A stretch of DNA of 64,000 nucleotides, taken from the IMG/VR virus record IMGVR_UViG_2609460125_000009. One strand, given 5' to 3'. Under the pieces are notes generated by a model. It saw only the letters and a program-made list of their open reading frames with translations, made no database searches and was not told the DNA's origin. Shown one piece after another: positions 43,592-64,000 of this stretch. The position numbers were made by a program, and so were the translations under genes. The stretch is from a virus. Lineage: Duplodnaviria > Heunggongvirae > Uroviricota > Caudoviricetes. Each line of letters opens with the position of its first letter. Position 1 is the first letter of the stretch.

Positions 43592-43825
43592 ATGATGAAA
43601 AGATTATTTCTAACAATAGCTGTTGTTCTCTCTCTTACTGGCTGCCAGAAATTGCCGACACCTATATGTTACGGTGAGGCTATCATTGGTGGACAGGAGA
43701 CAGTCATACCCATATATGCTGTTAAAAAAGTGAACGACTATACCTTATACAAAGCGGGTAGCATCTATAACTGGCGATGGGTAGGAGTAGGTGCTTTCTC
43801 ATCAGTCCGTTGCAATGTTGAATGA
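43592..43825 (+). CDS. small lipoprotein, candidate superinfection-exclusion protein
   Basis: Signal peptide with lipobox LTGC; 77 aa; located after the tail fibre genes. Confidence 0.55.
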   Translation: MMKRLFLTIAVVLSLTGCQKLPTPICYGEAIIGGQETVIPIYAVKKVNDYTLYKAGSIYNWRWVGVGAFSSVRCNVE

Positions 43826-47554: not shown

Positions 47555-48322
47555 TTATGCCGCGCTAACACTATGTTCAGTCCTAACCACCCCAACCTTC
47601 ACAAAAGGGCTACCGTAGCTTGGTGGCTTCTTGATTAATTTGCCTACATACAGTTTTCTAATATGCTCATCGGCTATTCTGCCAACAAATTCATAACGTT
47701 TTGTGTCGGGGCCAAGAGCTATATCCCTTGTAAAGTACTGCTGAGAACCGGCTTTGACCCAGCATTCAATCTGATAAACTTCCATTATCAGCCCACCATA
47801 TGTAGCGTAGGCATATTTGAGATTCTCGTCTCTTGGAACCTTTGCCCATACGCCACGCGTAGCTTCATATAATGCCAGAGCGGACATTCCTGACTTGTAG
47901 GTGCTGTTTAGCAGGAAGGCAAGACCGGCGTGCTCAGGAGCAATTTCAGTTTCCTCTTGCAGCACTAAGTGATGGTAGGCGTCCAGTGATATTCTGCCCA
48001 TCATGGAACCACTTCCTCGTACCTTATTCGTAAGCTCTCCGACCCCCATAAGGTCGATGCATGTCGCCTCAACAAGTTTGGCTGTGGTTTCATCCATACC
48101 ATGACGAAGTATATCTATGCCTAATTTTTTATTAGCCAAAAGTTCTTTGATCCGCATGGATTTGGGAGAGTCATCGGGATACTTGATGTGATCGAGACAA
48201 CGAGTCGATTTGCCTTTTCCTATGTAAAACGGTCTTTTCATCTTGTCTTCTGTATCATAGAGACAGTAAACATAGTATTTAGCCTTATCCAATGATCTCG
48301 CGTATACCGATAAATCGTCCAT
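47555..48322 (-). CDS. GIY-YIG nuclease domain protein
   Basis: N-terminal YVYCLYD…FYIGKGK…R…H motif; C-terminal domain unassigned. Confidence 0.55.
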   Translation of the reverse strand: MDDLSVYARSLDKAKYYVYCLYDTEDKMKRPFYIGKGKSTRCLDHIKYPDDSPKSMRIKELLANKKLGIDILRHGMDETTAKLVEATCIDLMGVGELTNKVRGSGSMMGRISLDAYHHLVLQEETEIAPEHAGLAFLLNSTYKSGMSALALYEATRGVWAKVPRDENLKYAYATYGGLIMEVYQIECWVKAGSQQYFTRDIALGPDTKRYEFVGRIADEHIRKLYVGKLIKKPPSYGSPFVKVGVVRTEHSVSAA

Positions 48323-48433: not shown

Positions 48434-48488
48434 CCTGCTTCTGTATATATAAATAATAAGTAACTTATTAAATATATACGGAAGCAGG
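48434..48488. repeat. 55-bp hairpin element, copy 2
   Basis: Identical to 15988-16042. Confidence 0.7.
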
Positions 48489-48595
48489 TCTTTTAAAAGA
48501 CACCACCAGAACAACTCCCTTCCGTTTCCACTTCCAAAAACTGCCACCAGTCGCTATCATCCGCTCATTGTGATAAGTAAGTAACTACCTACCAG

Positions 48596-49345
48596 GTGAG
48601 CCACATGAGCCAAATCTTTTTCGATACCATCGACAACGACCAGTACGACTTCATGACAGAGTGGAATACCGCTGTTATGGACAAGTGGGTCGCTGAAAAC
48701 ATTGGTTTGTCGCGCTGTAAAGACGAGGCTGAACTCTTCGAGACGAAGTGGTTTGATTACCGCGACATGCATCCTCTCATGGCCACCTGTCTTTTTACGG
48801 AGGCATACAAACGTCAGTACTCAAATATCATGCTGACGCACGGTCGCGAACACTTTGAAACAGCTCCGTTCACCACCGGGTTAAAACGCCTGCCTTATCA
48901 GGAGTTGTCGACTGCCAATAAAACGTCGCTATGGAAAGCACGCCAGTTTGCGGATCGCTATTGCTGCTCATACGACTACTTTATCTCCACCGTTCTTTCC
49001 GCAGCTGCACGACGGCTGTGGGACAAGCTGCCGCGCCCACAGCATTTGTGGCAGCCAGAGCTGATTGAGATATTCGAAGAGAAATTAGCCAGACGCGCAA
49101 CAACCCGTCTGGATGACTCTCTCGTTAGCTTTAAGCATATGGGAGACATGCAGTTCAACCCGATTCAGGAAAGCTATTTTGAGTGGATTCTGGAGCGTTT
49201 ACGCACCATCCCCCGCAGCAAGCGCATACGCGCAATTTTCTCCGCTATCTGGCTAATGGAAATCGTTCCAGAGCGCCTTATTTCCGCCCACTTTCCAGAA
49301 GAACTGGAAGAAGCACGGCGGTTTATTGATCCCCTATCTAATTAA
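48596..49345 (+). CDS. hypothetical protein upstream of the helicase (candidate initiator or loader)
   Basis: 249-aa ORF; function suggested by position only. Confidence 0.4.
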   Translation: MSHMSQIFFDTIDNDQYDFMTEWNTAVMDKWVAENIGLSRCKDEAELFETKWFDYRDMHPLMATCLFTEAYKRQYSNIMLTHGREHFETAPFTTGLKRLPYQELSTANKTSLWKARQFADRYCCSYDYFISTVLSAAARRLWDKLPRPQHLWQPELIEIFEEKLARRATTRLDDSLVSFKHMGDMQFNPIQESYFEWILERLRTIPRSKRIRAIFSAIWLMEIVPERLISAHFPEELEEARRFIDPLSN

Positions 49346-49354
49346 CTAATACTA

Positions 49355-49369
49355 GAAAACAATTTGTTT
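49355..49369. promoter_or_regulatory. motif family 1 site GAAAACAATTTGTTT
   Basis: Palindrome ~20 bp upstream of the helicase gene. Confidence 0.5.
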
Positions 49370-49388
49370 AAAAAACAAAGGAAAGCAC

Positions 49389-50729
49389 ATGACCGAACTT
49401 TGCCATACAGGACGCGGGCTGTCCGAAGAGTTTGATGAAGATTTTCAGAACAGATTGACGGCCTATTTTTGTCGTGATCACGAGTTTCTTACTCGTGCTG
49501 GAGATCTGGTTGTACCTAGCCAATTTGCCAATGCGGCCAATGCCATATTGGTTAATATGGTTTCGGGCTATTACCGTATGTACAAGAGCGCGCCCTCTTC
49601 ATCTGCGATTCTGGATATGCTTAAGCGTGCGAAACGCGATAAGACTATCCGTGAGGAACTATTCGCCGATGTTGTTGCTGCGTTTAAGCGCATCCTTGCA
49701 GAAAAATTGTCTGATACCTCGTACATGGTTGACCAGGTATCAACCTTCGCAAAAAGCGTAGCGTTTGATGATGCTCTGATTAAGGCTGCTGAACTGAAAG
49801 AGAAGGGCGACTTTCAGGGGGCGATGGCAATCATGGCCAAGGTTCAGCAGATTGGATCGAACGAAGCGACCGGAATCTATGACTACTACACCTCCGCAAG
49901 TGAGCGATTGAAAGCGCGTGAATATGAGGCTTCAGAGGAGTATGTGCCAAACAGCATTACAACTGGACTCCCTCTGCTCGATAGGTTGCTGTACCAAAAA
50001 GGCTGGGCGAAGCGTGAAATGGTGCTCTTCATGGGGTTCGCTAAATCCGGTAAATCGACCGCAATGGGTGAGTTTTCCATAAACGCAACGCTTGCTGGCT
50101 ACAATGTTCTGTATCTCTCGCTGGAGGTTCACACCACCATTTTATCCGACCGTTTTGATGCAAGATTGTCGGAGACAGAAATGTCCAAGCTGGTGGAACG
50201 GCGCGATGAGGTTCATCGTAAGTTGGCAGAGTTGGGAGCCACGAAGGGGATTGGTAGTTTGTGGGTTGTTGAGCGTCCGTCAGGAAGTATGTCACCGGCA
50301 GATCTGGACCGTATGCTTAACAGCATGAAAGCCAATGGCATGGTGCCTGACATGGTTGTTGTCGACTACGCAGATTTGATGCGTGCCAGTTATGACCTTC
50401 GTGATGATCGCGCCAACATTCGTAGTATCTACACCGATTTACGTGCTCTTTATGACAAGCATAACGTTGCTGGGATCACGGCATCGCAGACAAACCGTGA
50501 AGGTGGCGCGTCAGAAGTTGCCACAATGATGCACGCTGCCGACAATATCGAAAAAGTACGTATTGCTGACCTGGTAATAACGATCAACAAAACCGAAGAA
50601 GAAGAAGCGAAAGGAGAGGCTCGTCTCTACTTTGCTGGTTCACGTAACCAGCAGGGAGGGATCAGCATTCGCGTTAAACAAAACCTCGAACAAATGCGCT
50701 TCATTGAGCGAATCTTAGACGTTACCTAA
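49389..50729 (+). CDS. DnaB-family replicative helicase
   Basis: RecA-like core: Walker A GFAKSGKST, Walker B VVVDYADL. Confidence 0.75.
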   Translation: MTELCHTGRGLSEEFDEDFQNRLTAYFCRDHEFLTRAGDLVVPSQFANAANAILVNMVSGYYRMYKSAPSSSAILDMLKRAKRDKTIREELFADVVAAFKRILAEKLSDTSYMVDQVSTFAKSVAFDDALIKAAELKEKGDFQGAMAIMAKVQQIGSNEATGIYDYYTSASERLKAREYEASEEYVPNSITTGLPLLDRLLYQKGWAKREMVLFMGFAKSGKSTAMGEFSINATLAGYNVLYLSLEVHTTILSDRFDARLSETEMSKLVERRDEVHRKLAELGATKGIGSLWVVERPSGSMSPADLDRMLNSMKANGMVPDMVVVDYADLMRASYDLRDDRANIRSIYTDLRALYDKHNVAGITASQTNREGGASEVATMMHAADNIEKVRIADLVITINKTEEEEAKGEARLYFAGSRNQQGGISIRVKQNLEQMRFIERILDVT

Positions 50730-50810
50730 AAAATAAGCGTGGAGAACACCTCCACGCTTGATTCATTGGTGAAACAACTTTTCTTTTGCCAAACCACAAA
50801 AGAAAAACAC

Positions 50811-51992
50811 ATGAGCCTTTATGTTATATCAACATTTAGGTTGGTCACAATATTGCCTGTTAAAAGTGGAATTATCGTGAGCGAGCTGAAAGAGCTAATT
50901 ACCGAATTAGATTTTGAACAATGGTTGGATACTGAAGGTATCGTTTATCGACGTGGAGGCGTGAGTACTCGCGGTCGTGAAGTGAATATCAAGGAGTGTC
51001 CGGTATGTGGCAGCTCCAACTGGAAGGTATATTTCAATCTGACCAGTGGCGTCGGTAAATGCTTCGCTGGTGATCATCCCGAAGAGATTCAGTTCAATAA
51101 GCTGGTCTTCCTCAAGCACTACAGCGGCAAATCACGACGACAGTTCGAGGAATATGTGCAGAACGCCCTTCTTTCCCAGGGGTGGGCACCAAAGAAAGAA
51201 GAGATAGTGCTTGCAAGCACAGTCGAGTTAGAGGGACCACTTGCACTCCCTCGTCATTACGAACTTCCTATAGATGGCCGTCTTCCAGACTATCTGGTTG
51301 AACGAAACATATCGCCTGAAATGGCAAAGTATTTTGACCTACGATACTGCGTCGAAGGCAAGCACGCTTATGTAGATCCGTATACAGATCAGGTTAAAGG
51401 ACAGATATTCGATATGCGAATACTGATACCGGTTTACGATCTGGATGGGGTAATGAAGACATTTCAGGGGCGAGACATTACCGGTACAGCTGAACGTCGC
51501 TACCTCTTTCCTATGCAGCTTCCAGCTTCAGGTAAGTTTCTCTACAACGGCCATAATGCGGTCGGCAAACAGACTGTAGTTGTCTGTGAGGGGGCGTTCG
51601 ATGTTATGGGAGTTAAACGAGCTATTTTTGATGAAGAAACATTACGTGATTACGTGGAACCGATAGGAACGTTCGGGATGCATCTATCTGGTAACACCAC
51701 TCAGGATGCAGAAGATCAGTTGGGCGCGTTCCTGACGCTCAAGGCGCGTGGATTACGTAATGTGATCATGATGTGGGATAGTGAAAAGCAAGCTATACGC
51801 AACACTATGGCCGCAGCCAGGCGACTGACCAGTATTGGTCTTAATGTCAAAGTAGCATGTTTGGGCGAGGAAGGACTCGACCCAGGCGATGCAACGCCAG
51901 AACAAATTATCAAAGCCTATTATCGGGCAAAACCGTATACCAAACAGTTGGAGTTGCAAAGCAAGGTTTTGGGCATTAAGGCGCTATCGTAA
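50811..51992 (+). CDS. DNA primase (zinc finger + Toprim)
   Basis: CPVCGSS…C…H zinc-binding motif; Toprim-like VVVCEGAFD. Confidence 0.65.
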   Translation: MSLYVISTFRLVTILPVKSGIIVSELKELITELDFEQWLDTEGIVYRRGGVSTRGREVNIKECPVCGSSNWKVYFNLTSGVGKCFAGDHPEEIQFNKLVFLKHYSGKSRRQFEEYVQNALLSQGWAPKKEEIVLASTVELEGPLALPRHYELPIDGRLPDYLVERNISPEMAKYFDLRYCVEGKHAYVDPYTDQVKGQIFDMRILIPVYDLDGVMKTFQGRDITGTAERRYLFPMQLPASGKFLYNGHNAVGKQTVVVCEGAFDVMGVKRAIFDEETLRDYVEPIGTFGMHLSGNTTQDAEDQLGAFLTLKARGLRNVIMMWDSEKQAIRNTMAAARRLTSIGLNVKVACLGEEGLDPGDATPEQIIKAYYRAKPYTKQLELQSKVLGIKALS

Positions 51993-52005
51993 CAAGTGCC
52001 GCTAA

Positions 52006-52026
52006 AATAAGTAGATGATTACTTAT
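52006..52026. promoter_or_regulatory. motif family 2 site ATAAGTAGATGATTACTTATC
   Basis: Inverted repeat upstream of the 52068 ORF. Confidence 0.45.
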
Positions 52027-52067
52027 CTTTCTGTAAGAATACTTTCATCTGTTAGCTAGGAGTTGGT

Positions 52068-52850
52068 ATGAAAGACGAAATTCAGAAATTAGCCTGCGAC
52101 ATCATTGATAAAACTGGTTTAGAAATCAGCGAGTGCAATCGGCTAGACATCATTGAAAAAGCCGTAAAAACAGCAATGGATCATATCGCCACTCGTTTGG
52201 TCGAGATCCCGCTACCGGGGCTACCTTATCTGAAGGTTAAGTTACACGTATGGGGTGAACCTTCTTGTGCACGGCGTTATGCATTAGTTGTTTTTATTAG
52301 CAAAGAAAACCCGATCAGTCTTAAAGTGCAGGTTGGGGCATGGATGGATGGCAAAGTGATCTACACAAATACCGTTTTTTGTGCGTCAAATGACAGTATT
52401 ATTGAAGAGGCTATTCAAGAATCACTTCTAACTATGCATAGCTTAGTTTTGCTGGAAGACAAGCAAAACTACGAAGAGTACTTACGGTCGATAAAAGGTG
52501 AGAGAACATTGTCACTTAAAGCCGATTTCGTTACCCCGACAAACCTGTTGGAAGTCTTGCTTAATAAAGGGGCTAATGATGCCGTAAATGTAATCAGGGA
52601 GAGCGAATATTCGACTCTTTGGGACATGTGCAAAAGCCAGTTGGATCTGGTGCATATCGTTATTGATGCTGGGAAGGCATGTGATGGCGTAATGGCGGAA
52701 TTTGCTGGGAAGGTGGTCAGGATTGCTAACGAATTACCGATGATAGAGCAAGAGGCCAAATCATACGCCACCAATCATGTCACAGAGCTTCTTGTCCCCT
52801 ATCGCTTAGAAAGCAATCAGCGCAAGATGGTTAGCTGGGGAAGTTGGTAA
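52068..52850 (+). CDS. hypothetical protein
   Basis: 260-aa ORF. Confidence 0.45.
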   Translation: MKDEIQKLACDIIDKTGLEISECNRLDIIEKAVKTAMDHIATRLVEIPLPGLPYLKVKLHVWGEPSCARRYALVVFISKENPISLKVQVGAWMDGKVIYTNTVFCASNDSIIEEAIQESLLTMHSLVLLEDKQNYEEYLRSIKGERTLSLKADFVTPTNLLEVLLNKGANDAVNVIRESEYSTLWDMCKSQLDLVHIVIDAGKACDGVMAEFAGKVVRIANELPMIEQEAKSYATNHVTELLVPYRLESNQRKMVSWGSW

Positions 52851-52905
52851 TCTCTCCGCGCGTCGTTTTTTACGCAAATAACGATAGGTAAGTACAAGAT
52901 TATTT

Positions 52906-53388
52906 ATGGCGGTAGTTGTGAAAGCTGATTTGTCAAAAATCCCTTCTATTTCAGGAAATAACGGTTATTCACTTCGTTGTGAGGAAGTAAAGATAAACGG
53001 TGAGTCGGCATATTGCAGCTATTCCGTTTGCCAGCACACCATTCTTGCCTTCAAAGAAAACCGTCTTCCTCGAACTTCTTTCCAGTCGTGCGCAACCGCT
53101 ATTAAAGCAGGCAAATGCAAGGCGTTAAAAATGATGGTTGAAGAGATTCGTAAAGGAGAATCTCTGTATTTCGAAGATATGACCGCGCTCATTAAGGAGG
53201 TTGAAGAACGGAATAAACAAGCCAGAACTATAAAACGAAAACGTGACAGTGTAACGATTAATAGCATGGTTAAGAAGAGCACCACATCACAAACAGCGAT
53301 CACTGACGTGTATGCGGCGTTGCTTGAAGAAACAACAAAAGAAACACATGAGCAAATCGATCAACATATGGAGGCAAAACAACAATGA
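52906..53388 (+). CDS. hypothetical protein
   Basis: 160-aa ORF; overlaps the ligase start. Confidence 0.45.
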   Translation: MAVVVKADLSKIPSISGNNGYSLRCEEVKINGESAYCSYSVCQHTILAFKENRLPRTSFQSCATAIKAGKCKALKMMVEEIRKGESLYFEDMTALIKEVEERNKQARTIKRKRDSVTINSMVKKSTTSQTAITDVYAALLEETTKETHEQIDQHMEAKQQ

Positions 53389-54707
53389 AAAAGTTGATCG
53401 CACTTAAGCATAAGCTGGACGAAATGAAAGCTATGGGAACCAATGCAAAAAAAGAGGCATTGGCCAACATGGATGACTTCGAGCAAAGCATGGTTTCATT
53501 GATGCTCAACCCTTTCATCCGTTTTGGGGTAAAGAAATACAAAGTGGCAGAGCCGCTTAGTGAGTCCGTCCCAAGTGACGAAAAAGCCATTGATATACTG
53601 AATAAGCTGGCCTCTCGCGAGCTGACGGGGAACGCAGCAATAGCAGCTGTTGAGTCTATCGTGGCGTCAATGTGCGCCGATGGGCAGGACGTGTTCCGTC
53701 GTTTCCTCTTAAAAGACCCGAAAGCAGGTGTTGGGATTAGCCTATGCAACAAGGTTTTTGAAAATCCCATTCCGAAATTCGAGGTGCAGCTGGCGTCACC
53801 GTATAAAGAAAAAGGCGACAAATACCCCTTCAAGCCAAATCCTAAAGCCAAATGGCCGATGATTGGCAGCCTTAAGCTCGATGGTTTGCGAGTAATTTGC
53901 GAGGTTATTGTTGACGAGGAAGAGGTTAACTTCCTTTCTCGTACTGGTAATCCAATCACGTCTCTCGATCACCTAAAGCCAGCCATGCTCGAATTAGGCA
54001 AACTTTCAGGCCACAAACACATCTTCTTCGATGGTGAAGGAACAGCCGGTTCATTTAACCAGTCCGTATCTGCATTGCGCAAAAAGAACGTGCAGGCAAT
54101 TGGCGCTATTTATCATGTTTTCGACTTCTTCCTACCGGAATGGCGGGCACAGGCTAAATCCAAAGAGTATGCAAAGACAGGTATGAAGCTGAAAGAGCGC
54201 CTGGCTATTCTCGTGGCGTTGTTCAAAAACGATCGCAGTGAAGACTACGCGCAAGACATTCACCTACATCCGTTCTACATCATCCATAGCCACGAAGACT
54301 TCATCGAACGCTTCATGAAACGCCTGGACGATAACGAAGAAGGGGAGATGGGCAAAGATCCGAACTCTGTTTACGAGTTTAAACGTACCCGCAGCTGGTG
54401 GAAGTTAAAAGACGAAGATTCAGAAGATGGTGAAATTATCGACTTTGAGCCGGGCGACCCGGACTCTGGTTTTGCCAACACACTTGGAAAAATTGTTATT
54501 CGTCTTGAAAACGGCGTCATCGTTCGTGCGAGCGGCATTAAGCATAAATATCTGGACGAGATCTGGAACAACAAAGAGAAGTACCGTGGTCGTATTGTCG
54601 AGGTTCATTGTCACGAGAAAACACCGGACGGCAGCTTACGCCACCCACGACTGAAATGGCCGCGTTGCTTACGCGATACAGAAGATCGAATCGGAGATAA
54701 AGAATGA
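53385..54707 (+). CDS. ATP-dependent DNA ligase
   Basis: Adenylation motif KLDGLRV. Confidence 0.8.
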   Translation: MKKLIALKHKLDEMKAMGTNAKKEALANMDDFEQSMVSLMLNPFIRFGVKKYKVAEPLSESVPSDEKAIDILNKLASRELTGNAAIAAVESIVASMCADGQDVFRRFLLKDPKAGVGISLCNKVFENPIPKFEVQLASPYKEKGDKYPFKPNPKAKWPMIGSLKLDGLRVICEVIVDEEEVNFLSRTGNPITSLDHLKPAMLELGKLSGHKHIFFDGEGTAGSFNQSVSALRKKNVQAIGAIYHVFDFFLPEWRAQAKSKEYAKTGMKLKERLAILVALFKNDRSEDYAQDIHLHPFYIIHSHEDFIERFMKRLDDNEEGEMGKDPNSVYEFKRTRSWWKLKDEDSEDGEIIDFEPGDPDSGFANTLGKIVIRLENGVIVRASGIKHKYLDEIWNNKEKYRGRIVEVHCHEKTPDGSLRHPRLKWPRCLRDTEDRIGDKE

Positions 54708-54883: not shown

Positions 54884-55082
54884 GCGGGAGAAGGAAACGC
54901 TTCATGAAATCAGTAAGTGGCCGGAGTTCCCTGAGTACTGGAAGCCTAAAACGCGGGCTAAGTTAGAGCGGTTAGGGTTGGTTGCAAACGTTTCTGAAAC
55001 GTGGTGTTCGGCCAACTACCAGTTAACTGATAAAGGGAAAGTATTGCTACAGCAATTAGTAGAATCAGGAGCGTTAAAATGA
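54867..55082 (+). CDS. hypothetical small protein
   Basis: 71-aa ORF overlapping its neighbours. Confidence 0.4.
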   Translation: MIVLSKREKETLHEISKWPEFPEYWKPKTRAKLERLGLVANVSETWCSANYQLTDKGKVLLQQLVESGALK

Positions 55083-55560: not shown

Positions 55561-56294
55561 AGATGACTTTGTTTTCGTTGAGACGCGACTGTTTGAACTT
55601 AAATACAAGTGCAAACGAAGAAGTCTATCTGGCAGTAGCCTAATAAGCCAAACACCAGCGAGGTCAGTTTCCAGCCTCGTTACCGAAATGGGACACACTG
55701 AGCGAGTGTGATTGCAGAACGCAGGAGGGAACATTCATGTTCCCTCCGATGAAGTAACAGAATGGGCGGTTGGTATATTTTCAACTCCATATGACTCCCG
55801 GATTCTTAGCCACTGACCGCCCATCCTGTTACGTCATTTTGTTCAATTATGTCGTTTATACTGGGTTAAAAAGCGGCGACGTAGCCCGGCTGGTATGGTT
55901 AGCCAGCACACAACGTTGAGGCCATTACATTTTTATCAATTCTAAGGTTCTATTCACAGAGATACCGGCGAGCGTTGATATGTAACATGTTGGGCAAACA
56001 TTCAATCGGAGTAGTGGCCTCAACGTTGTGAAGACAGGATTGTTGTGTAGGTTTAACCACTGTTGCCATTGGTGCCTGTTTTCACAACAAATGATTCCAT
56101 ACATCACATTGTATAAATTACAAAGTAGGTGCTGTCCTCAGAAACATCATCTACTTAAAGATTTTGCCTTCTATTGAGCGAAGTCGAAAACGTCTGGCAC
56201 TAACGGAAAGTGCAAGTAGCGGTGTGTTTCCTGGCAGAAACTAACACCGCCGCGATTGGCACTGTTGAGTAATAAATACTGGCAGTGCTGAATT

Positions 56295-56369
56295 GATGGT
56301 GTAGCTCAGCGGTAGAGCAGTTGGCTGTTAACCAACTGGTCGGTGGTTCGAATCCACCCACCATCGCCA
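56295..56369 (+). tRNA. tRNA-Asn (anticodon GTT)
   Basis: Hand-folded cloverleaf: acceptor GATGGTG/CACCATC, anticodon loop CTGTTAA, T-loop TTCGAAT, 3' CCA encoded. Confidence 0.8.
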
Positions 56370-56374
56370 ATTTA

Positions 56375-56461
56375 GGGGAGTTAGTCCGTAGAGGTAGCGG
56401 GGTAGACTGTAAATCTACTGTCATTGCGACTCGGGTGGTTCGACTCCATCACTCCCCACCA
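56375..56461 (+). tRNA. tRNA-Tyr (anticodon GTA), long variable arm
   Basis: Acceptor GGGGAGT/ACTCCCC, anticodon stem-loop GTAGA-CTGTAAA-TCTAC, long variable arm; D-arm pairing is atypical. Confidence 0.6.
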
Positions 56462-56465
56462 AATT

Positions 56466-56541
56466 GCCGGTTTAGCTCAGTTGGTAGAGCGCCTGCCTTG
56501 TAAGCAGGATGTCAGCGGTTCGATCCCGTTAACCGGCACCA
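56466..56541 (+). tRNA. tRNA-Thr (anticodon TGT)
   Basis: Acceptor GCCGGTT/AACCGGC, D-arm GCTC-AGTTGGTA-GAGC, anticodon loop CTTGTAA, T-loop TTCGATC. Confidence 0.8.
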
Positions 56542-56904
56542 ACACAACAGGTAAGAGCATTGGGCGAATCGGCGATACTGACCCACAAGCCCGTAAATCG
56601 ATAGAGTCAGACCAGTGCTCTTACCGTTGTGAGGAAGTGCAGCTCTTTGAAGCAACCAGAAGATAAGCATCTGGCTTCACAACACAACGATAAGATCATT
56701 ACGGTTAATCGTCGTTCATGTGCACAATGACTGGTCGAAAGGTAGTGATCTTACCGTTGTGGTGGATTCGCAGACTGATGCGATAGCTTTCTTGGATGTT
56801 AGGGAAATGCGGCCGCAAATCTTCCCTTTCGCGAGCGGTGATCGTCCGTAGTCCTAATTGGCTGCACCGTATGCCGGAGATTCAGTACCGGCCACCACAA
56901 CGGC

Positions 56905-56991
56905 CGGAGAGTAGGGAGCATGGTGCTCAAGCGGTCTTGAAAACCGTCCCATTGCGCAAGCGATGATGGTTCGATTCCATTACTCTCCGCC
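56905..56991 (+). tRNA. tRNA-Ser (anticodon TGA), long variable arm
   Basis: Acceptor GGAGAGT/ACTCTCC, anticodon loop CTTGAAA, T-loop TTCGATT; D-arm atypical. Confidence 0.55.
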
Positions 56992-57147
56992 AGACACAGC
57001 GTTGAGCGGTTTGGCCTTTTAATCACCCAGATTAAGACTCCGCTAACATAAACCAGACCGCTCAACGCTGTGATAGACAATTACGGCAGACGTTCTTAAC
57101 CATAGCTTGCTAACATCCTAGCAACACTTTTTTTCAGCGCAAAATTC

Positions 57148-60063: not shown

Positions 60064-62172
60064 ATGTCTAAAAAACGTTCCATCAAAGAGGTTCAGGACT
60101 TCCGTGACAGTGTAAAACGAGTAGTCGCTCTCCTTTCAGGTAAAAACATCCCTGTTGCAGAACGAGGGGACGACGCTTATGTACGCTATAACGATGATGG
60201 AGAGCCAATTCTCGTAAACATCCCATCAATCCCGGATAACGCAACACCGGCATTGATGAATGCTGTGCGCGGATTTCTCGATCATGAGGTTGCTCACATT
60301 TTGTTTACCGATATTCGTGTGTCCAACAAAATGAGAGAAAAAGGACGCGTTCCTTCCTGGTCGCTATGGAATGCCTTAGAAGACGTGTTCATCGAGCGAA
60401 AAATGGGTCAGGTCTTTAACGGAACAAGACGTAATCTGATGGCAACTCAGCGCCTTATAATCGAAAAAGTCTTTAAACCAAAGGCTTCAGAGGCTATTGC
60501 TTATTGTGGCAAAGATCAGCGCGCGCTTTTTCTAAACTTCTTTCTCTGTCCGGTTGTAAGAGCCTGGGATGGCCAAGCACCGTTCGTAGATTTCATGGAT
60601 GAATATTGGCCTGTCATTGAGAAACCAATTTCATTATTAAAAGAACATGGTATCGATGTGGCCGTGCGTAACATGTCTTGCACCGAGGATTGTGTAAAGG
60701 TGGCTGCGACCATAGCTAAGATCCTCAAAGACACTGAAAGTGAAAGCAAAGGTAAGGAGTCAGCTCCGGGAAAAACTTCCGATCCTTCAGACGCTGACCA
60801 GACGGATGCCTCTGGAGAAAACAATGAAGACAACGAAGATCATGAGACACCCTCAGCGTTAGATAATCACAAATCTATCAAATCAGAATCACACAGTAAG
60901 CACAAACATGATAATAACGACGGTGATGATTCAGATAATTCTGAATCATCAGAAACAATATTCGATGATACAGAAAATGATAAAGAGGTATCAGATTCTG
61001 ATGCTTCTGATAACGCGGTGTCAGAATCATTTACCGCTGACCACGAAAAAAGAAAAACGACAGAAGACGGCTCTTCAGATATCCCAACTCCGTCAAAAAT
61101 GAGTCTGGAAGAGGCTTTAGAGGAGCTGGATAGCATAGAAGATGAAGTCGGAGGCATGACAGAAGATGCTCTATCCGAAACGATTAAAAGCGAGTTAACA
61201 GAAACCTCGAAAAGCGAATACAGGCCATACAATCGCTCATACGACTTCATCGGCTCGATTGATCAGGCAGAAGCCCATATCAAACGGCTTATTAAAACAT
61301 TCTCCGATATTGATTTAGGAGGATATCCAATCAGCCGCTATCGCATCGTTCCTGAAGGCAACCAGCTCTTCGACAAATATATTGAAAAGCATCTTTCGTC
61401 AGGTGTTTCGTCGACGCTGGCAAAAGACCTGGAGCGAGCAATAGCAAGCAGAAACAGAGTTCAGTTTATACCGGGCCAGCGTCGGGGGCGCATTCATGGT
61501 TCTAGTATCTACAGATTAGCAATGAATGATGATCGCGTGTTTCGTAAAAAAGAAGAATCTAAAGCCGTTAACGCCTGTGTTCAGCAAGTGATTGATTTAT
61601 CAGGTTCAATGAGTGGTATAACGATACAATTGGCTCTTGCAAGTGCATATACCATCGCCGATGCCCTTGATCGAATAAATGTTCCCAACATTATCACCGG
61701 CTTCACTACATTTGGTAGTCATATGGCGGCAGGAGAACTTAAGGCTGTCAAGTATGAGTTCTCTCGCTTTGAATCTTTAATGCTACCTATCATCAAAAAT
61801 TGGAATGAAAAGGTAAATTCTCGCGAAGTTCGCTCACGTATGGGGTGCGTAGGCTACACATTCCCACTTCTTAATAACGTGGATGGTGAAAGCATAGCCA
61901 GCCTTGCATCGTTATTTTCCGGTCGCATGGAGGACAGGAAGATCATGCTTGTTCTGAGTGATGGCGCGCCGTGGGCTGTTGGGAGAGGTTTTGACGCTCA
62001 TTTGCGTTCGGTTGCGAAGCAAATTGAAACGCAGACTGACATTGATTTGATGGCAATTGGCATCATGACTGACGCACCGGAGAGATTATACTCAAATCAT
62101 GCCCTGGTAACGAGCGTTGATAGTCTTGGTTCATCTGTAGTTACTGAACTATCTCGTATCATTTTAAAGTGA
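60064..62172 (+). CDS. CobT-like protein with C-terminal vWA domain
   Basis: Long acidic linker; MIDAS-like DLSGSMSG in the C-terminal domain. Confidence 0.6.
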   Translation: MSKKRSIKEVQDFRDSVKRVVALLSGKNIPVAERGDDAYVRYNDDGEPILVNIPSIPDNATPALMNAVRGFLDHEVAHILFTDIRVSNKMREKGRVPSWSLWNALEDVFIERKMGQVFNGTRRNLMATQRLIIEKVFKPKASEAIAYCGKDQRALFLNFFLCPVVRAWDGQAPFVDFMDEYWPVIEKPISLLKEHGIDVAVRNMSCTEDCVKVAATIAKILKDTESESKGKESAPGKTSDPSDADQTDASGENNEDNEDHETPSALDNHKSIKSESHSKHKHDNNDGDDSDNSESSETIFDDTENDKEVSDSDASDNAVSESFTADHEKRKTTEDGSSDIPTPSKMSLEEALEELDSIEDEVGGMTEDALSETIKSELTETSKSEYRPYNRSYDFIGSIDQAEAHIKRLIKTFSDIDLGGYPISRYRIVPEGNQLFDKYIEKHLSSGVSSTLAKDLERAIASRNRVQFIPGQRRGRIHGSSIYRLAMNDDRVFRKKEESKAVNACVQQVIDLSGSMSGITIQLALASAYTIADALDRINVPNIITGFTTFGSHMAAGELKAVKYEFSRFESLMLPIIKNWNEKVNSREVRSRMGCVGYTFPLLNNVDGESIASLASLFSGRMEDRKIMLVLSDGAPWAVGRGFDAHLRSVAKQIETQTDIDLMAIGIMTDAPERLYSNHALVTSVDSLGSSVVTELSRIILK

Positions 62173-62187
62173 ACAAAACAGCCTTAA

Positions 62188-62210
62188 CGATAAGTAACCA
62201 CTTACGATAG
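62188..62210. promoter_or_regulatory. motif family 2 site GATAAGTAACCACTTACGATAG
   Basis: Inverted repeat between the CobT-like and CobS-like genes. Confidence 0.4.
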
Positions 62211-62267
62211 ATAATGATATATTTATATAAGAAGTTGAACGCTCATTAGAAAACAAAGGAAAAACGC

Positions 62268-63503
62268 ATGACTACTACTGCACTGCAAAATGAAAACAAT
62301 CCTTCTGATTACCTTGTTTGCAAGTGGTGCGGAAAATCATTTCACTATTTTAAGTCCCATGTTGCCAATGGTAATTGCGAGGGCATTCCTGAGTCAGTAA
62401 AAGATGCCGATCCTGACACCGTACTGAAAATGTACACAACACAGTTTCCAGATGAGCCAACGCTATCGAAAAAGGCACTTGATGCAATTCAAGCTAAACG
62501 TGCCGAGCAAAAAAGCGAAATGGCCAAATCATCTGGCGTGACCAGTAGCCCAGGCTACACAGGCACAGTTGAGTACAAGACAGATCTGGTCGCAGCTCAC
62601 GAACTGCTAAATGTAACGGTGAAAGAACTCGGAACAAAACGTGGGACGCCGCTCATGGTTAGCGTCAACGTCAATACGCCGTTTCCAGAGTTCGTTCCAG
62701 AAGTGAAGAAGGGATACGTATATGGCGACTTCGAACTGATCAAAGACATTTTCATGATGCTTGAACTTGGCATACCTGGCTATTTGTGGGGTCATGCAGG
62801 AACAGGCAAATCGTCATTGCCTACACAACTATGTGCTTTGCTCAATCGTCCGTTGATCCGTGCCCAACATACAGCATCAATGGAAGAGGCACATGTTACG
62901 GGGCAAATTCTGGCGCGTGATGGCTCTACGTATTTCGAGCCTGGCTTGCTTGCGCTCGCAATGAAGCATGGCTGGGTTTACCTCGCGGATGAATACGACT
63001 TTGCGTTTCCACAAATTCTTGGCGTGTATCAGCCAGTGCTGGAAGGTGAAGCGTTAGTCATCAAAGAGGCGACTCCAGAATGGCGTCGCATTACTCCGCA
63101 TGAACGGTTTGCTTTCATTGGCACTGGCAACACGAACGGATCTGGTGATGAAACCGGCTTGTACCAGGGTACAAACATCCAGAACGCCGCGAACTTTTCG
63201 CGTTTTGGCATCGTTTCGAATGTGAAATACATGAGCAAAGAGGCAGAGATCAACATGTTGATAAATGCCGGTATCGTGGATGAATACGCAGAAAAGATGG
63301 TTAAGTTTGCCGGTATCGTTCGCGATGGATACGAAGAACACCTTATCAGTCAGCCAATTGGCCCTCGTGAACTTTTGTTGTCGGCCAAGATTGGAATGAT
63401 GCGAGGCGACTTTGTGACAGGTATTGAGCGTTCTTTCATTAACAAACTCCCTTCAGCTTCTGCACAAGCGGCTCGTGAAGTTGTTCAAAAAATATTTGGT
63501 TGA
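62268..63503 (+). CDS. CobS-like MoxR-type AAA+ ATPase
   Basis: Walker A GHAGTGKSS; Walker B LADEYD. Confidence 0.6.
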   Translation: MTTTALQNENNPSDYLVCKWCGKSFHYFKSHVANGNCEGIPESVKDADPDTVLKMYTTQFPDEPTLSKKALDAIQAKRAEQKSEMAKSSGVTSSPGYTGTVEYKTDLVAAHELLNVTVKELGTKRGTPLMVSVNVNTPFPEFVPEVKKGYVYGDFELIKDIFMMLELGIPGYLWGHAGTGKSSLPTQLCALLNRPLIRAQHTASMEEAHVTGQILARDGSTYFEPGLLALAMKHGWVYLADEYDFAFPQILGVYQPVLEGEALVIKEATPEWRRITPHERFAFIGTGNTNGSGDETGLYQGTNIQNAANFSRFGIVSNVKYMSKEAEINMLINAGIVDEYAEKMVKFAGIVRDGYEEHLISQPIGPRELLLSAKIGMMRGDFVTGIERSFINKLPSASAQAAREVVQKIFG

Positions 63504-63683: not shown

Positions 63684-64000
63684 ATGAAGGCACTGATGGT
63701 TCGAACTGACTTCTCACTTGGGGAGTCGGCTTTAAAAGCAGAAAACGCGGTGAAGATTGCCAGAGAAGCTGGCTACACCGCTGTAATTTCAGCAGATAGC
63801 ATGAATATTGCGAGCGTTATTCCACTACAACGTGCCGCTGGTGACGACATGGCGGTTATTTGTGGTGTGAAACTAAACATCGTTGATGATCCCACATACG
63901 AGCACCGGGCTAAACTTGCTAAAGAGTCTAAGGGATGTATGGAATCATTGGAGCGAGGACGTAACTACTCGTTTACCGCTCTAATTAAAAATGAGAAAGG
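63684..64000 (+). CDS. PHP-domain DNA polymerase alpha-like protein, N-terminal part (3' end outside window)
   Basis: ATG with AAGGTAAAAA RBS; frame open to the window end; N-terminus resembles the DnaE PHP start but lacks the first His pair. Confidence 0.4.
   Translation, partial: MKALMVRTDFSLGESALKAENAVKIAREAGYTAVISADSMNIASVIPLQRAAGDDMAVICGVKLNIVDDPTYEHRAKLAKESKGCMESLERGRNYSFTALIKNEK

Follow-up and report, generated by a model that had tools for sequence, protein, structure and literature searches.

A helicase, primase and ligase module of SSU5/Cyrano-type phage-plasmids with a probable role in lytic DNA replication

The SSU5 supergroup of phage-plasmids was described by Pfeifer et al. (PMC7969092), and its IncFIB-named groups are pHCM2, pKpn, pSLy3 and pMT1. 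Elements of the SSU5 type are common in clinical and veterinary isolates of E. coli, Klebsiella and Salmonella, and routine plasmid typing labels them IncFIB(pLF82-PhagePlasmid). Escherichia phage Cyrano is the phage-plasmid pLF82 of E. coli LF82 (PMC9928086). The subject of this report is a block of six open reading frames (ORFs) at positions 48596-54707 of a 64,000-nucleotide stretch of viral DNA (IMG/VR record IMGVR_UViG_2609460125_000009), which is called the window throughout. An initial annotation described the block as a self-sufficient replication unit that encodes a helicase, a primase, a ligase and three unassigned proteins (here ORF1, ORF4 and ORF5), the last of which were expected to include an initiator or loader that recognizes iterons. 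Judged by DNA identity and gene order, the block belongs to a known E. coli phage-plasmid of the SSU5/Cyrano type, of which it forms the helicase, primase and ligase module. We give a probability of roughly 0.65 to the reading that it is a primosome-plus-ligase module serving lytic DNA replication and not plasmid maintenance.

The block is covered over 100% of its length by Cyrano, at 98.1% DNA identity, and its first half is 81% identical to the DNA of Salmonella phage SSU5. Among plasmid records, 469 match the block, and 171 of these do so over at least 80% of its length, at 98-99% identity. The best plasmid match, which its depositors named pCPF6-IncFIB, has the same gene layout as the window. 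When the window is mapped onto the Cyrano record, it begins near 92 kb, runs through the ends of the record and stops near 47 kb. The window shares with Cyrano and SSU5 the order ParA, small partner, variable slot, ORF1, helicase, primase, ORF4, ORF5, ligase, tRNAs, a CobT/AAA pair and the DNA polymerase III alpha subunit (PolIII alpha). Both DNA identity and gene order thus place the element among the SSU5-supergroup phage-plasmids of Cyrano/pLF82 type. The elements differ in the variable slot between the par genes and ORF1, which holds a minus-strand PD-T4-3-like gene in the window and CYRAN_30 in Cyrano; an additional minus-strand gene 3' of the primase is present only in SSU5, and the window has an additional tRNA-Tyr relative to Cyrano.

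Public databases already contain the element and its block under identical annotations, and a specialist would find nothing surprising in the block. It is ordinary except for its three conserved uncharacterized partner proteins, and the interest is confined to what these proteins do. The phage-plasmid of a 2026 heteroresistance preprint belongs to a different family.

Plasmid and lytic replication functions

The Cyrano-type element as a whole is a Rep_3 iteron replicon, a class that includes those of the P1 RepA and RepFIB types. The RepA gene of Cyrano (CYRAN_63) encodes WH1 and WH2 domains of Rep_3. Iterons of about 20 bp, more than 15 in number, lie on either side of this gene; they share the core CTCTCTATAGTGGATA, and some have a spacing of 21 bp. 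RepA and its flanking repeats form a classical iteron replicon, and they lie about 29 kb from the block, outside the window. The block itself differs from Rep_3 replicons in that its three unassigned proteins contain no Rep domain, and in that RepA and the iterons lie outside both block and window.

Searches of the window for this replicon gave consistent results. RepA is not encoded there according to tblastn, the Cyrano repA primers for quantitative PCR have no match in it, and the RepA iteron core is absent from all 64,000 nucleotides. Neither within the block nor next to it did scans for tandem and direct repeats between 45 and 56.5 kb detect an iteron array. The primer pair comes from Misson et al., who found about 5.5 plasmid copies per cell (PMC9928086). 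With Pfam at E-values up to 0.01, none of ORF1, ORF4 and ORF5 matches WH1 or WH2 (PF01051, PF21205); Cyrano RepA matches both. As candidates for Rep_3 iteron-binding initiators, the three proteins were therefore rejected, because the winged-helix domains and the iteron array are both absent. In Cyrano, iterons flank a separate Rep_3 gene, and the proposal in the initial annotation of an iteron-binding initiator among the unassigned proteins is not supported. Its other option, a loader, is plausible for ORF1, which lies upstream of the helicase in four lineages.

Transcription in Cyrano lysogens follows the same division. Expression was taken from RNA-seq data as normalized read counts for strain LF82 grown overnight in LB, with a floor of about 5 (PMC9928086, S1 table). 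The genes for plasmid maintenance are well represented, with 133 for RepA, 50 for ParA and 96 for the repressor, and the genes upstream of ORF1 have counts of 89 (CYRAN_29) and 55 (CYRAN_30) (PMC9928086). Within the block, counts are 6.2 for CYRAN_31 (ORF1), 21 for the helicase, 10.6 for the primase, 8.8 for CYRAN_35 (ORF5) and 5.9 for the ligase; PolIII alpha has 10 (PMC9928086). Because the RepA and Par counts are high and those of the block are near the floor, the plasmid state coincides with expression of RepA and Par, and not with that of the block.

The six ORFs of the block are all present and co-oriented on the plus strand, as initially described (Table 1), and the names given to the three enzymes are borne out by Pfam and PHROG profiles together with catalytic motifs. 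The helicase matches phrog_19 (5.5e-88) and Pfam DnaB_C (PF03796; E = 3.6e-13; 49.9 bits, cut-off 27), and its RecA-type C-terminal ATPase domain carries the Walker A motif GFAKSGKS at residue 216. The N-terminal part aligns with TIGR03600 phage_DnaB (residues 30-371) and with TIGR00665 from about residue 30, at scores far under the equivalog cut-offs. No separate DnaB N-domain was matched in Pfam, and PDB chains of the gp41 type align from residue 55. Its nearest solved chains in sequence are 8DUE, 8DTP and 8G0Z, which we take to be T4 gp41. On this sequence evidence the protein is a replicative helicase of the DnaB/gp41 family.

The primase is assigned a GTG start at 50877, and not at 50739, in the annotations of both Cyrano and pCPF6. 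It matches phrog_47 (DNA primase; 2e-65) and scores slightly under the Pfam cut-offs for DNAG_N (25.4 versus 26 bits) and Toprim_2 (21.9 versus 22.1 bits). A zinc ribbon of the form CPVC...C....H, CPVCGSSNWKVYFNLTSGVGKCFAGDH, occupies residues 41-67, and an RNA-polymerase core with TOPRIM is recognizable, including the acidic motif EGAFD. The protein also matches PDB primase chain 5GUJ (6.8e-6), and the closest solved chains by sequence, 8GAO_G and 8DVF_H, are presumably T4 gp61.

The ligase matches PF01068 (3.7e-13) and phrog_114 (1.1e-125), and motif I (KxDG) of its nucleotidyltransferase domain is KLDG at K164. The solved structures nearest to it in sequence include PDB entry 6RAU, which aligns over residues 28-427 (1.5e-26), and 6DT1, which aligns with the N-terminal domain over residues 11-207 (1.3e-24); the OB region aligns with 1A0I over residues 305-394. 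By these alignments, the ligase is composed of an N-terminal DNA-binding domain, a nucleotidyltransferase domain and an OB domain. We take 6DT1 to be T4 ligase and 6RAU to be a marine ATP-dependent ligase; for these entries, as for those of the helicase and primase, the search lists molecule names alone.

The block is not self-sufficient, as it has no polymerase, single-stranded DNA-binding protein (SSB), proofreading exonuclease or RNase H. In Cyrano these functions are encoded 9-45 kb further on. Elsewhere, Cyrano encodes PolIII alpha, an epsilon-like exonuclease, a gp32-like SSB, UvsY and a RecA-like protein, as well as RNase H, SbcCD, RuvC and nucleotide-metabolism enzymes. The start of a PHP-type polymerase gene that was initially annotated near the end of the window agrees with mapping onto CYRAN_49, which is annotated as the DNA polymerase III alpha subunit. 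Among known systems, the primosome and ligase of phage T4 (gp41 helicase, gp61 primase, gp59 loader and gp30 ligase) are close to the block, and the element also has proteins resembling gp32, UvsY, UvsX/RecA and gp46/47. Because the closest structures are of the T4 type and gp32-, UvsY-, UvsX- and gp46/47-like genes are present, a T4-like lytic replication with a bacterial-type PolIII alpha at its core is indicated. The element thus appears to carry two replication systems, with RepA and iterons for the plasmid and a T4-like replisome for the lytic cycle. Keeping these systems apart avoids mis-annotation of the helicase block as a plasmid replicon.

We propose that the two systems act in turn. 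In the lysogen, RepA and the iterons would start theta replication with host enzymes, and the block would be almost silent, insulated from the expressed par operon by a terminator-like palindrome. Upon induction, the block would be transcribed. ORF1 would then help the helicase to assemble at forks coated by SSB or at intermediates of recombination, a role like that of T4 gp59 but performed by an unrelated fold. The helicase would recruit the primase, and the ligase, made together with ORF5, would seal Okazaki fragments.

The module is also found in distant phages. The order PhoH, ORF1-like gene, helicase and primase is common to the phages nickie (Pseudomonas), RHEph10 (Rhizobium) and JGB6 (Xanthomonas). 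In nickie and RHEph10, one to three further ORFs follow the primase and precede the ligase; in JGB6, a PolIII alpha gene follows further ORFs instead of a ligase. Nickievirus nickie differs from the window in having additional small genes interspersed, and the gene at the position of ORF4 (gp108) is unrelated. RHEph10 has a WGR-domain protein at that position (gp034, PF05406, 11236-11880). Nickievirus Nican01, a phage with long terminal repeats and a predicted virulent lifestyle (PMC11256456), carries an ORF1 homologue. In RHEph10, a gene for a RepC-type initiator (PF03428 and PF11800; 14562-15566, minus strand) adjoins the helicase, primase and ligase module, so RHEph10 may be a rhizobial phage-plasmid. 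Because the module occurs with RepC or in a phage predicted to be virulent, the plasmid initiator is exchangeable or absent. ORF1, helicase, primase and ligase form a phage core that travels together, and the module is older than the plasmid lifestyle and does not depend on it.

Table 1. Coordinates of the block and of associated features in the window
Feature	Position	Strand	Family or signature
Near-perfect palindrome, 55 bp; G+C-rich outer arms, A+T-rich centre, then TCTTTT	48434..48488	+	Inverted repeats
ORF1, 249 amino acids as longest ORF; likely ATG at 48605 (246 amino acids)	48596..49345	+	phrog_2500
Copy of gene-start motif AGAAAACAANNTGTT, 20 nucleotides 5' of helicase ATG	49354..49368	+	Dispersed motif
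Replicative helicase assigned to DnaB/gp41 family, 446 amino acids	49389..50729	+	DnaB_C, phrog_19, Walker A
DnaG/gp61-type primase, 371 amino acids	50877..51992 (GTG start; longest ORF from 50739)	+	phrog_47, zinc ribbon, TOPRIM
ORF4, 260 amino acids, alpha/beta, conserved WGSW C-terminus	52068..52850	+	phrog_4248
ORF5, 160 amino acids	52906..53388	+	phrog_5055
ATP-dependent DNA ligase with three predicted domains, 440 amino acids	53385..54707	+	PF01068, phrog_114, KLDG
PolIII alpha (PHP-type) gene start, cut by window end	63684..64000	+	Cyrano CYRAN_49, 98.9% identity
Copies of AGAAAACAANNTGTT (minus-strand copies marked)	1058(-), 1105, 4341, 4825, 5732(-), 6478, 6963, 16078, 16103, 46424, 49354		

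Uncharacterized proteins and alternative readings

ORF1, ORF4 and ORF5 had been left unassigned, and profile searches leave them so; they match only PHROGs of unknown function, and no unrelated function was assigned to any of them. None has a match among Pfam, NCBIfam or PADLOC families.

ORF1 starts at ATG 48605 in its homologues and in the Cyrano annotation. Its family has 40 members in a collection of 5.8 billion sequences, and those with a named source come from enterobacterial hosts. The motifs KWFDYR, WKARQxAD and LPRPQHLWQ are strongly conserved. By tblastn, homologues that are 25-32% identical were found in siphoviruses of 106-122 kb that infect Pseudomonas, Rhizobium and Xanthomonas. 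The AlphaFold2 (AF2) model is confident (pLDDT 86.9, pTM 0.85) and all-alpha. A search of PDB sequences with the family profile gave no match, and neither did a Foldseek search of BFVD with the model. When the family was aligned by hhalign to an eight-member gp59 alignment from T4-like phages, the probability was 0.4% (E = 0.17). Assignment of ORF1 to the T4 gp59 family of loaders fails on sequence and profile as well as on fold. Loaders of the lambda P, DnaC/IstB, DciA, SPP1 G39P and DnaD-like types were likewise rejected for lack of a match by Pfam, PDB sequence or fold. Because sequence, profile and fold searches were all null, ORF1 falls outside any known family of loaders or initiators.

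In four lineages ORF1 occupies a constant place immediately 5' of the helicase, and a role in helicase loading or primosome assembly is on that account the best guess for this protein. Among the three uncharacterized proteins, ORF1 is the best candidate for such a factor, a proposal that we hold tentatively and at somewhat less than even odds. If it is correct, a new family would be added to the short list of routes by which replicative helicases are loaded. Two distant relatives of ORF1 (P0039 and P0040) are longer and have a Cys-rich C-terminus. Interpretation of this C-terminus as an ORF5-like domain acquired by gene fusion is not supported.

ORF5 consists of an N-terminal domain of about 100 amino acids with Cys and His residues, a basic and poorly conserved linker, and an acidic C-terminal tail. 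Residues C25, C42, H44 and C71 are invariant, and the sequence ITDVYAALIEE is conserved in the tail. The N-terminal domain is homologous to gp107 of nickie (E = 2e-9). RHEph10 gp036 has a similar pattern of Cys residues, but was rejected as a homologue because the similarity is not significant, and the ORF5 profile has no match among PDB sequences. The stop codon of ORF5 overlaps the ligase start by 4 nucleotides (ATGA) in the window and also in nickie, which represent two distant lineages. This shared overlap suggests that ORF5 is co-translated with the ligase and is a candidate partner of it.

A stronger proposal joins these two proteins. ORF1 would found a new, structurally unprecedented family of loaders or primosome-assembly factors for gp41/DnaB-type helicases, and ORF5 would be a dedicated, translationally coupled and possibly zinc-binding partner of a T4-type ligase. 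The ORF1 family would then span a broad and little-studied set of siphoviruses and phage-plasmids of 105-120 kb from Enterobacterales, Pseudomonas, Rhizobium and Xanthomonas. We regard this combined proposal as possible but on the doubtful side.

Several points weigh against assignment of the block to lytic replication with ORF1 as loader. Low RNA levels in lysogens are compatible with a low-level role of the block in plasmid replication, and the helicase count of 21 is above the floor. The window itself does not show whether its own element carries repA, and assignment of the block to the lytic cycle is something that we infer. For ORF1, the argument for a loader comes from conserved adjacency only, with no relative among known loaders by sequence or fold. 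The protein is acidic (pI 5.8), and its relative P0040 is located in a small integrase island that has no helicase, which misfits a dedicated loader.

Alternatively, ORF1 might bind a lytic origin and recruit the helicase to it, in the manner of lambda O, P22 gp18 or SPP1 G38P. The origin could be a site in or near the ORF1 gene, or the palindrome that lies 108 bp upstream of it, which has an A+T-rich centre and is kept in SSU5. The conserved adjacency of ORF1 and helicase in the four lineages fits such a protein, and P0040 stands alone beside an integrase, as do the initiators of small islands. However, the arms of the palindrome and its T-tail are preserved in SSU5 behind a different upstream gene, and in Cyrano RNA falls about ninefold, from 55 for CYRAN_30 to 6.2 for CYRAN_31, across the interval that holds the palindrome (PMC9928086). 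The T-run and the fall in RNA fit a terminator, and we read the palindrome as a likely terminator or insulator that marks where the block begins; that it is instead a lytic origin is conceivable. There are also no repeated binding sites within the ORF1 gene, and ORF1 is acidic and has no recognizable DNA-binding domain. Moreover, the T4-like recombination set (UvsY, gp32-like SSB, RecA-like protein and SbcCD) permits initiation that is independent of an origin. An origin-binding ORF1 is therefore unlikely.

ORF4 has an AF2 model (pLDDT 87.7) with an alpha/beta N-terminal part and a helical C-terminal domain. Its identity is 41% in SSU5 and 33% in Klebsiella phage-plasmids, as against 86-90% for ORF1 and 86-93% for neighbouring genes in the same elements. 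An exhaustive search of 1.8 billion representatives found 21 relatives, all of them close, and hhalign gave no match to the positional equivalents, nickie gp108 and RHEph10 gp034. The Cyrano gene, CYRAN_34, is the only gene of the block that is clearly transcribed in lysogens; it reaches 43.7 units after overnight growth in LB, which is two to seven times the level of its neighbours, and in the other conditions of the table its log2 values, which reach up to 8.5, are 2.2 to 5.9 units above theirs (PMC9928086). Because ORF4 diverges rapidly and is transcribed in lysogens, it is probably an accessory, host-facing gene and not a core part of the replisome. In one database protein (P0093), 190 residues from the N-terminus of a homologue of ORF4 are joined to the C-terminal part of the ligase. 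This protein is either an artefact of assembly or a natural deletion variant that has lost ORF5 along with most of the ligase.

It is still less probable than an origin-binding ORF1 that ORF4, perhaps with ORF5, is not a replication protein but a transcription factor that recognizes phage-specific promoters, as a late factor with a sigma region-2-like fold in the manner of T4 gp55/gp33. The shared gene-start motif AGAAAACAANNTGTT is kept in SSU5, although the identity of ORF4 among phage-plasmids is down to 33-41%. In addition, no sigma family is matched in Pfam, and ORF4 is expressed in lysogens, in which late genes are silent.

Genes for lambda O and P and for P22 gp18 adjoin those of their helicases. 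This arrangement, which ORF1 repeats, along with the absence of an assigned family for all three proteins and the A+T-rich palindrome just upstream of ORF1, is what favours the initial model of a self-sufficient replicon in which ORF1, ORF4 or ORF5 is an iteron-recognizing plasmid initiator; that model is very improbable, given that no iteron array lies in or beside the block, that the iterons belong to a separate Rep_3 RepA in the 98%-identical Cyrano and are absent, with RepA, from the window, that none of the three proteins has a winged-helix Rep domain, that the block is near-silent in lysogens holding about 5.5 plasmid copies per cell, and that the module is present, too, in a Nickievirus with a predicted virulent lifestyle and beside RepC in RHEph10.

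Dispersed motifs and neighbouring features

The motif AGAAAACAANNTGTT occurs 11 times in the window, compared with 0.26 copies expected. The flanks of the copies are conserved; a GATAAT-like hexamer lies about 12 nucleotides upstream of each copy, and in most cases a ribosome-binding site and ATG follow shortly downstream. Copies precede ParA (46424), the helicase (49354), the terminase small subunit (16078 and 16103) and several small genes between 1 and 7 kb. Cyrano also conserves the motif, and the copies at ParA and the helicase are kept in about 80 related loci. A scan of viral contigs with the helicase, which returned only relatives at least 92% identical, was used for this check of motif conservation alone. 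In SSU5, the motif is conserved at the ParA site, and the helicase copy has one mismatch. AGAAAACAANNTGTT is a dispersed signal that resembles a promoter or operator, and neither a set of iterons nor an origin array. It is probably an operator-bearing promoter or else a conserved leader, and the copy before the helicase may be an internal promoter or operator. The iterons of the initial annotation may have been these dispersed copies; no array is present in or beside 48.3-54.8 kb.

A second motif, ATAAGTAAGTA(ACTACC)-like, has an exact copy at 48573-48589, about 6 nucleotides before the GTG and 15 nucleotides before the ATG of ORF1. It is also present at 43825, 55532(-), 12753 and 18044. When up to three mismatches are allowed, there are 6 matches compared with 0.09 expected, and SSU5 has the version ATGTAAGTAAGTGACTACC at the same place. 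Promoter-like sites of the sigma-70 type are depleted between 47400 and 56400, with 3 sites versus 14.4 ± 3.7 in shuffled sequences.

The variable slot upstream of ORF1 (47555-48322, minus strand) encodes a GIY-YIG-like protein of 255 amino acids that matches the anti-phage defence protein PD-T4-3 (PADLOC, 1.3e-23) and LEM-3 GIY-YIG (Pfam, 5.5e-7). This PD-T4-3-like gene is also found in pCPF6-IncFIB; the gene in the corresponding slot of Cyrano, CYRAN_30, is unrelated and lies on the plus strand.

The 14-mer AATGATTCCATACA is present in five copies, at 55078, 56090, 57886/57908 (an inverted pair) and 63939, one of which is upstream of the tRNA cluster. This 14-mer is possibly an operator to which a phage regulator binds. 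The noncoding region 55749-56088, which separates the tRNA cluster from the last small ORF, contains three long inverted repeats (22 nucleotides at 91%, 20 at 95% and 14 at 93% complementarity). The region matches no Rfam family, and it could be a structured RNA, a regulatory region or an origin-like region.

The tRNA cluster (56295-56992) comprises four genes, for Asn, Tyr, Thr and Ser. The annotation of Cyrano has no more than Asn, Thr and Ser, so the tRNA-Tyr of the window (56375-56461, 87 nucleotides, Rfam 43.5 bits) is extra. Directly 5' of PolIII alpha, at 60064-63503, are genes for a CobT-like VWA protein (702 amino acids) and an AAA_5 MoxR/CobS-like ATPase (411 amino acids), and in Cyrano and SSU5 this pair is annotated as participating in cobalamin or porphyrin synthesis.

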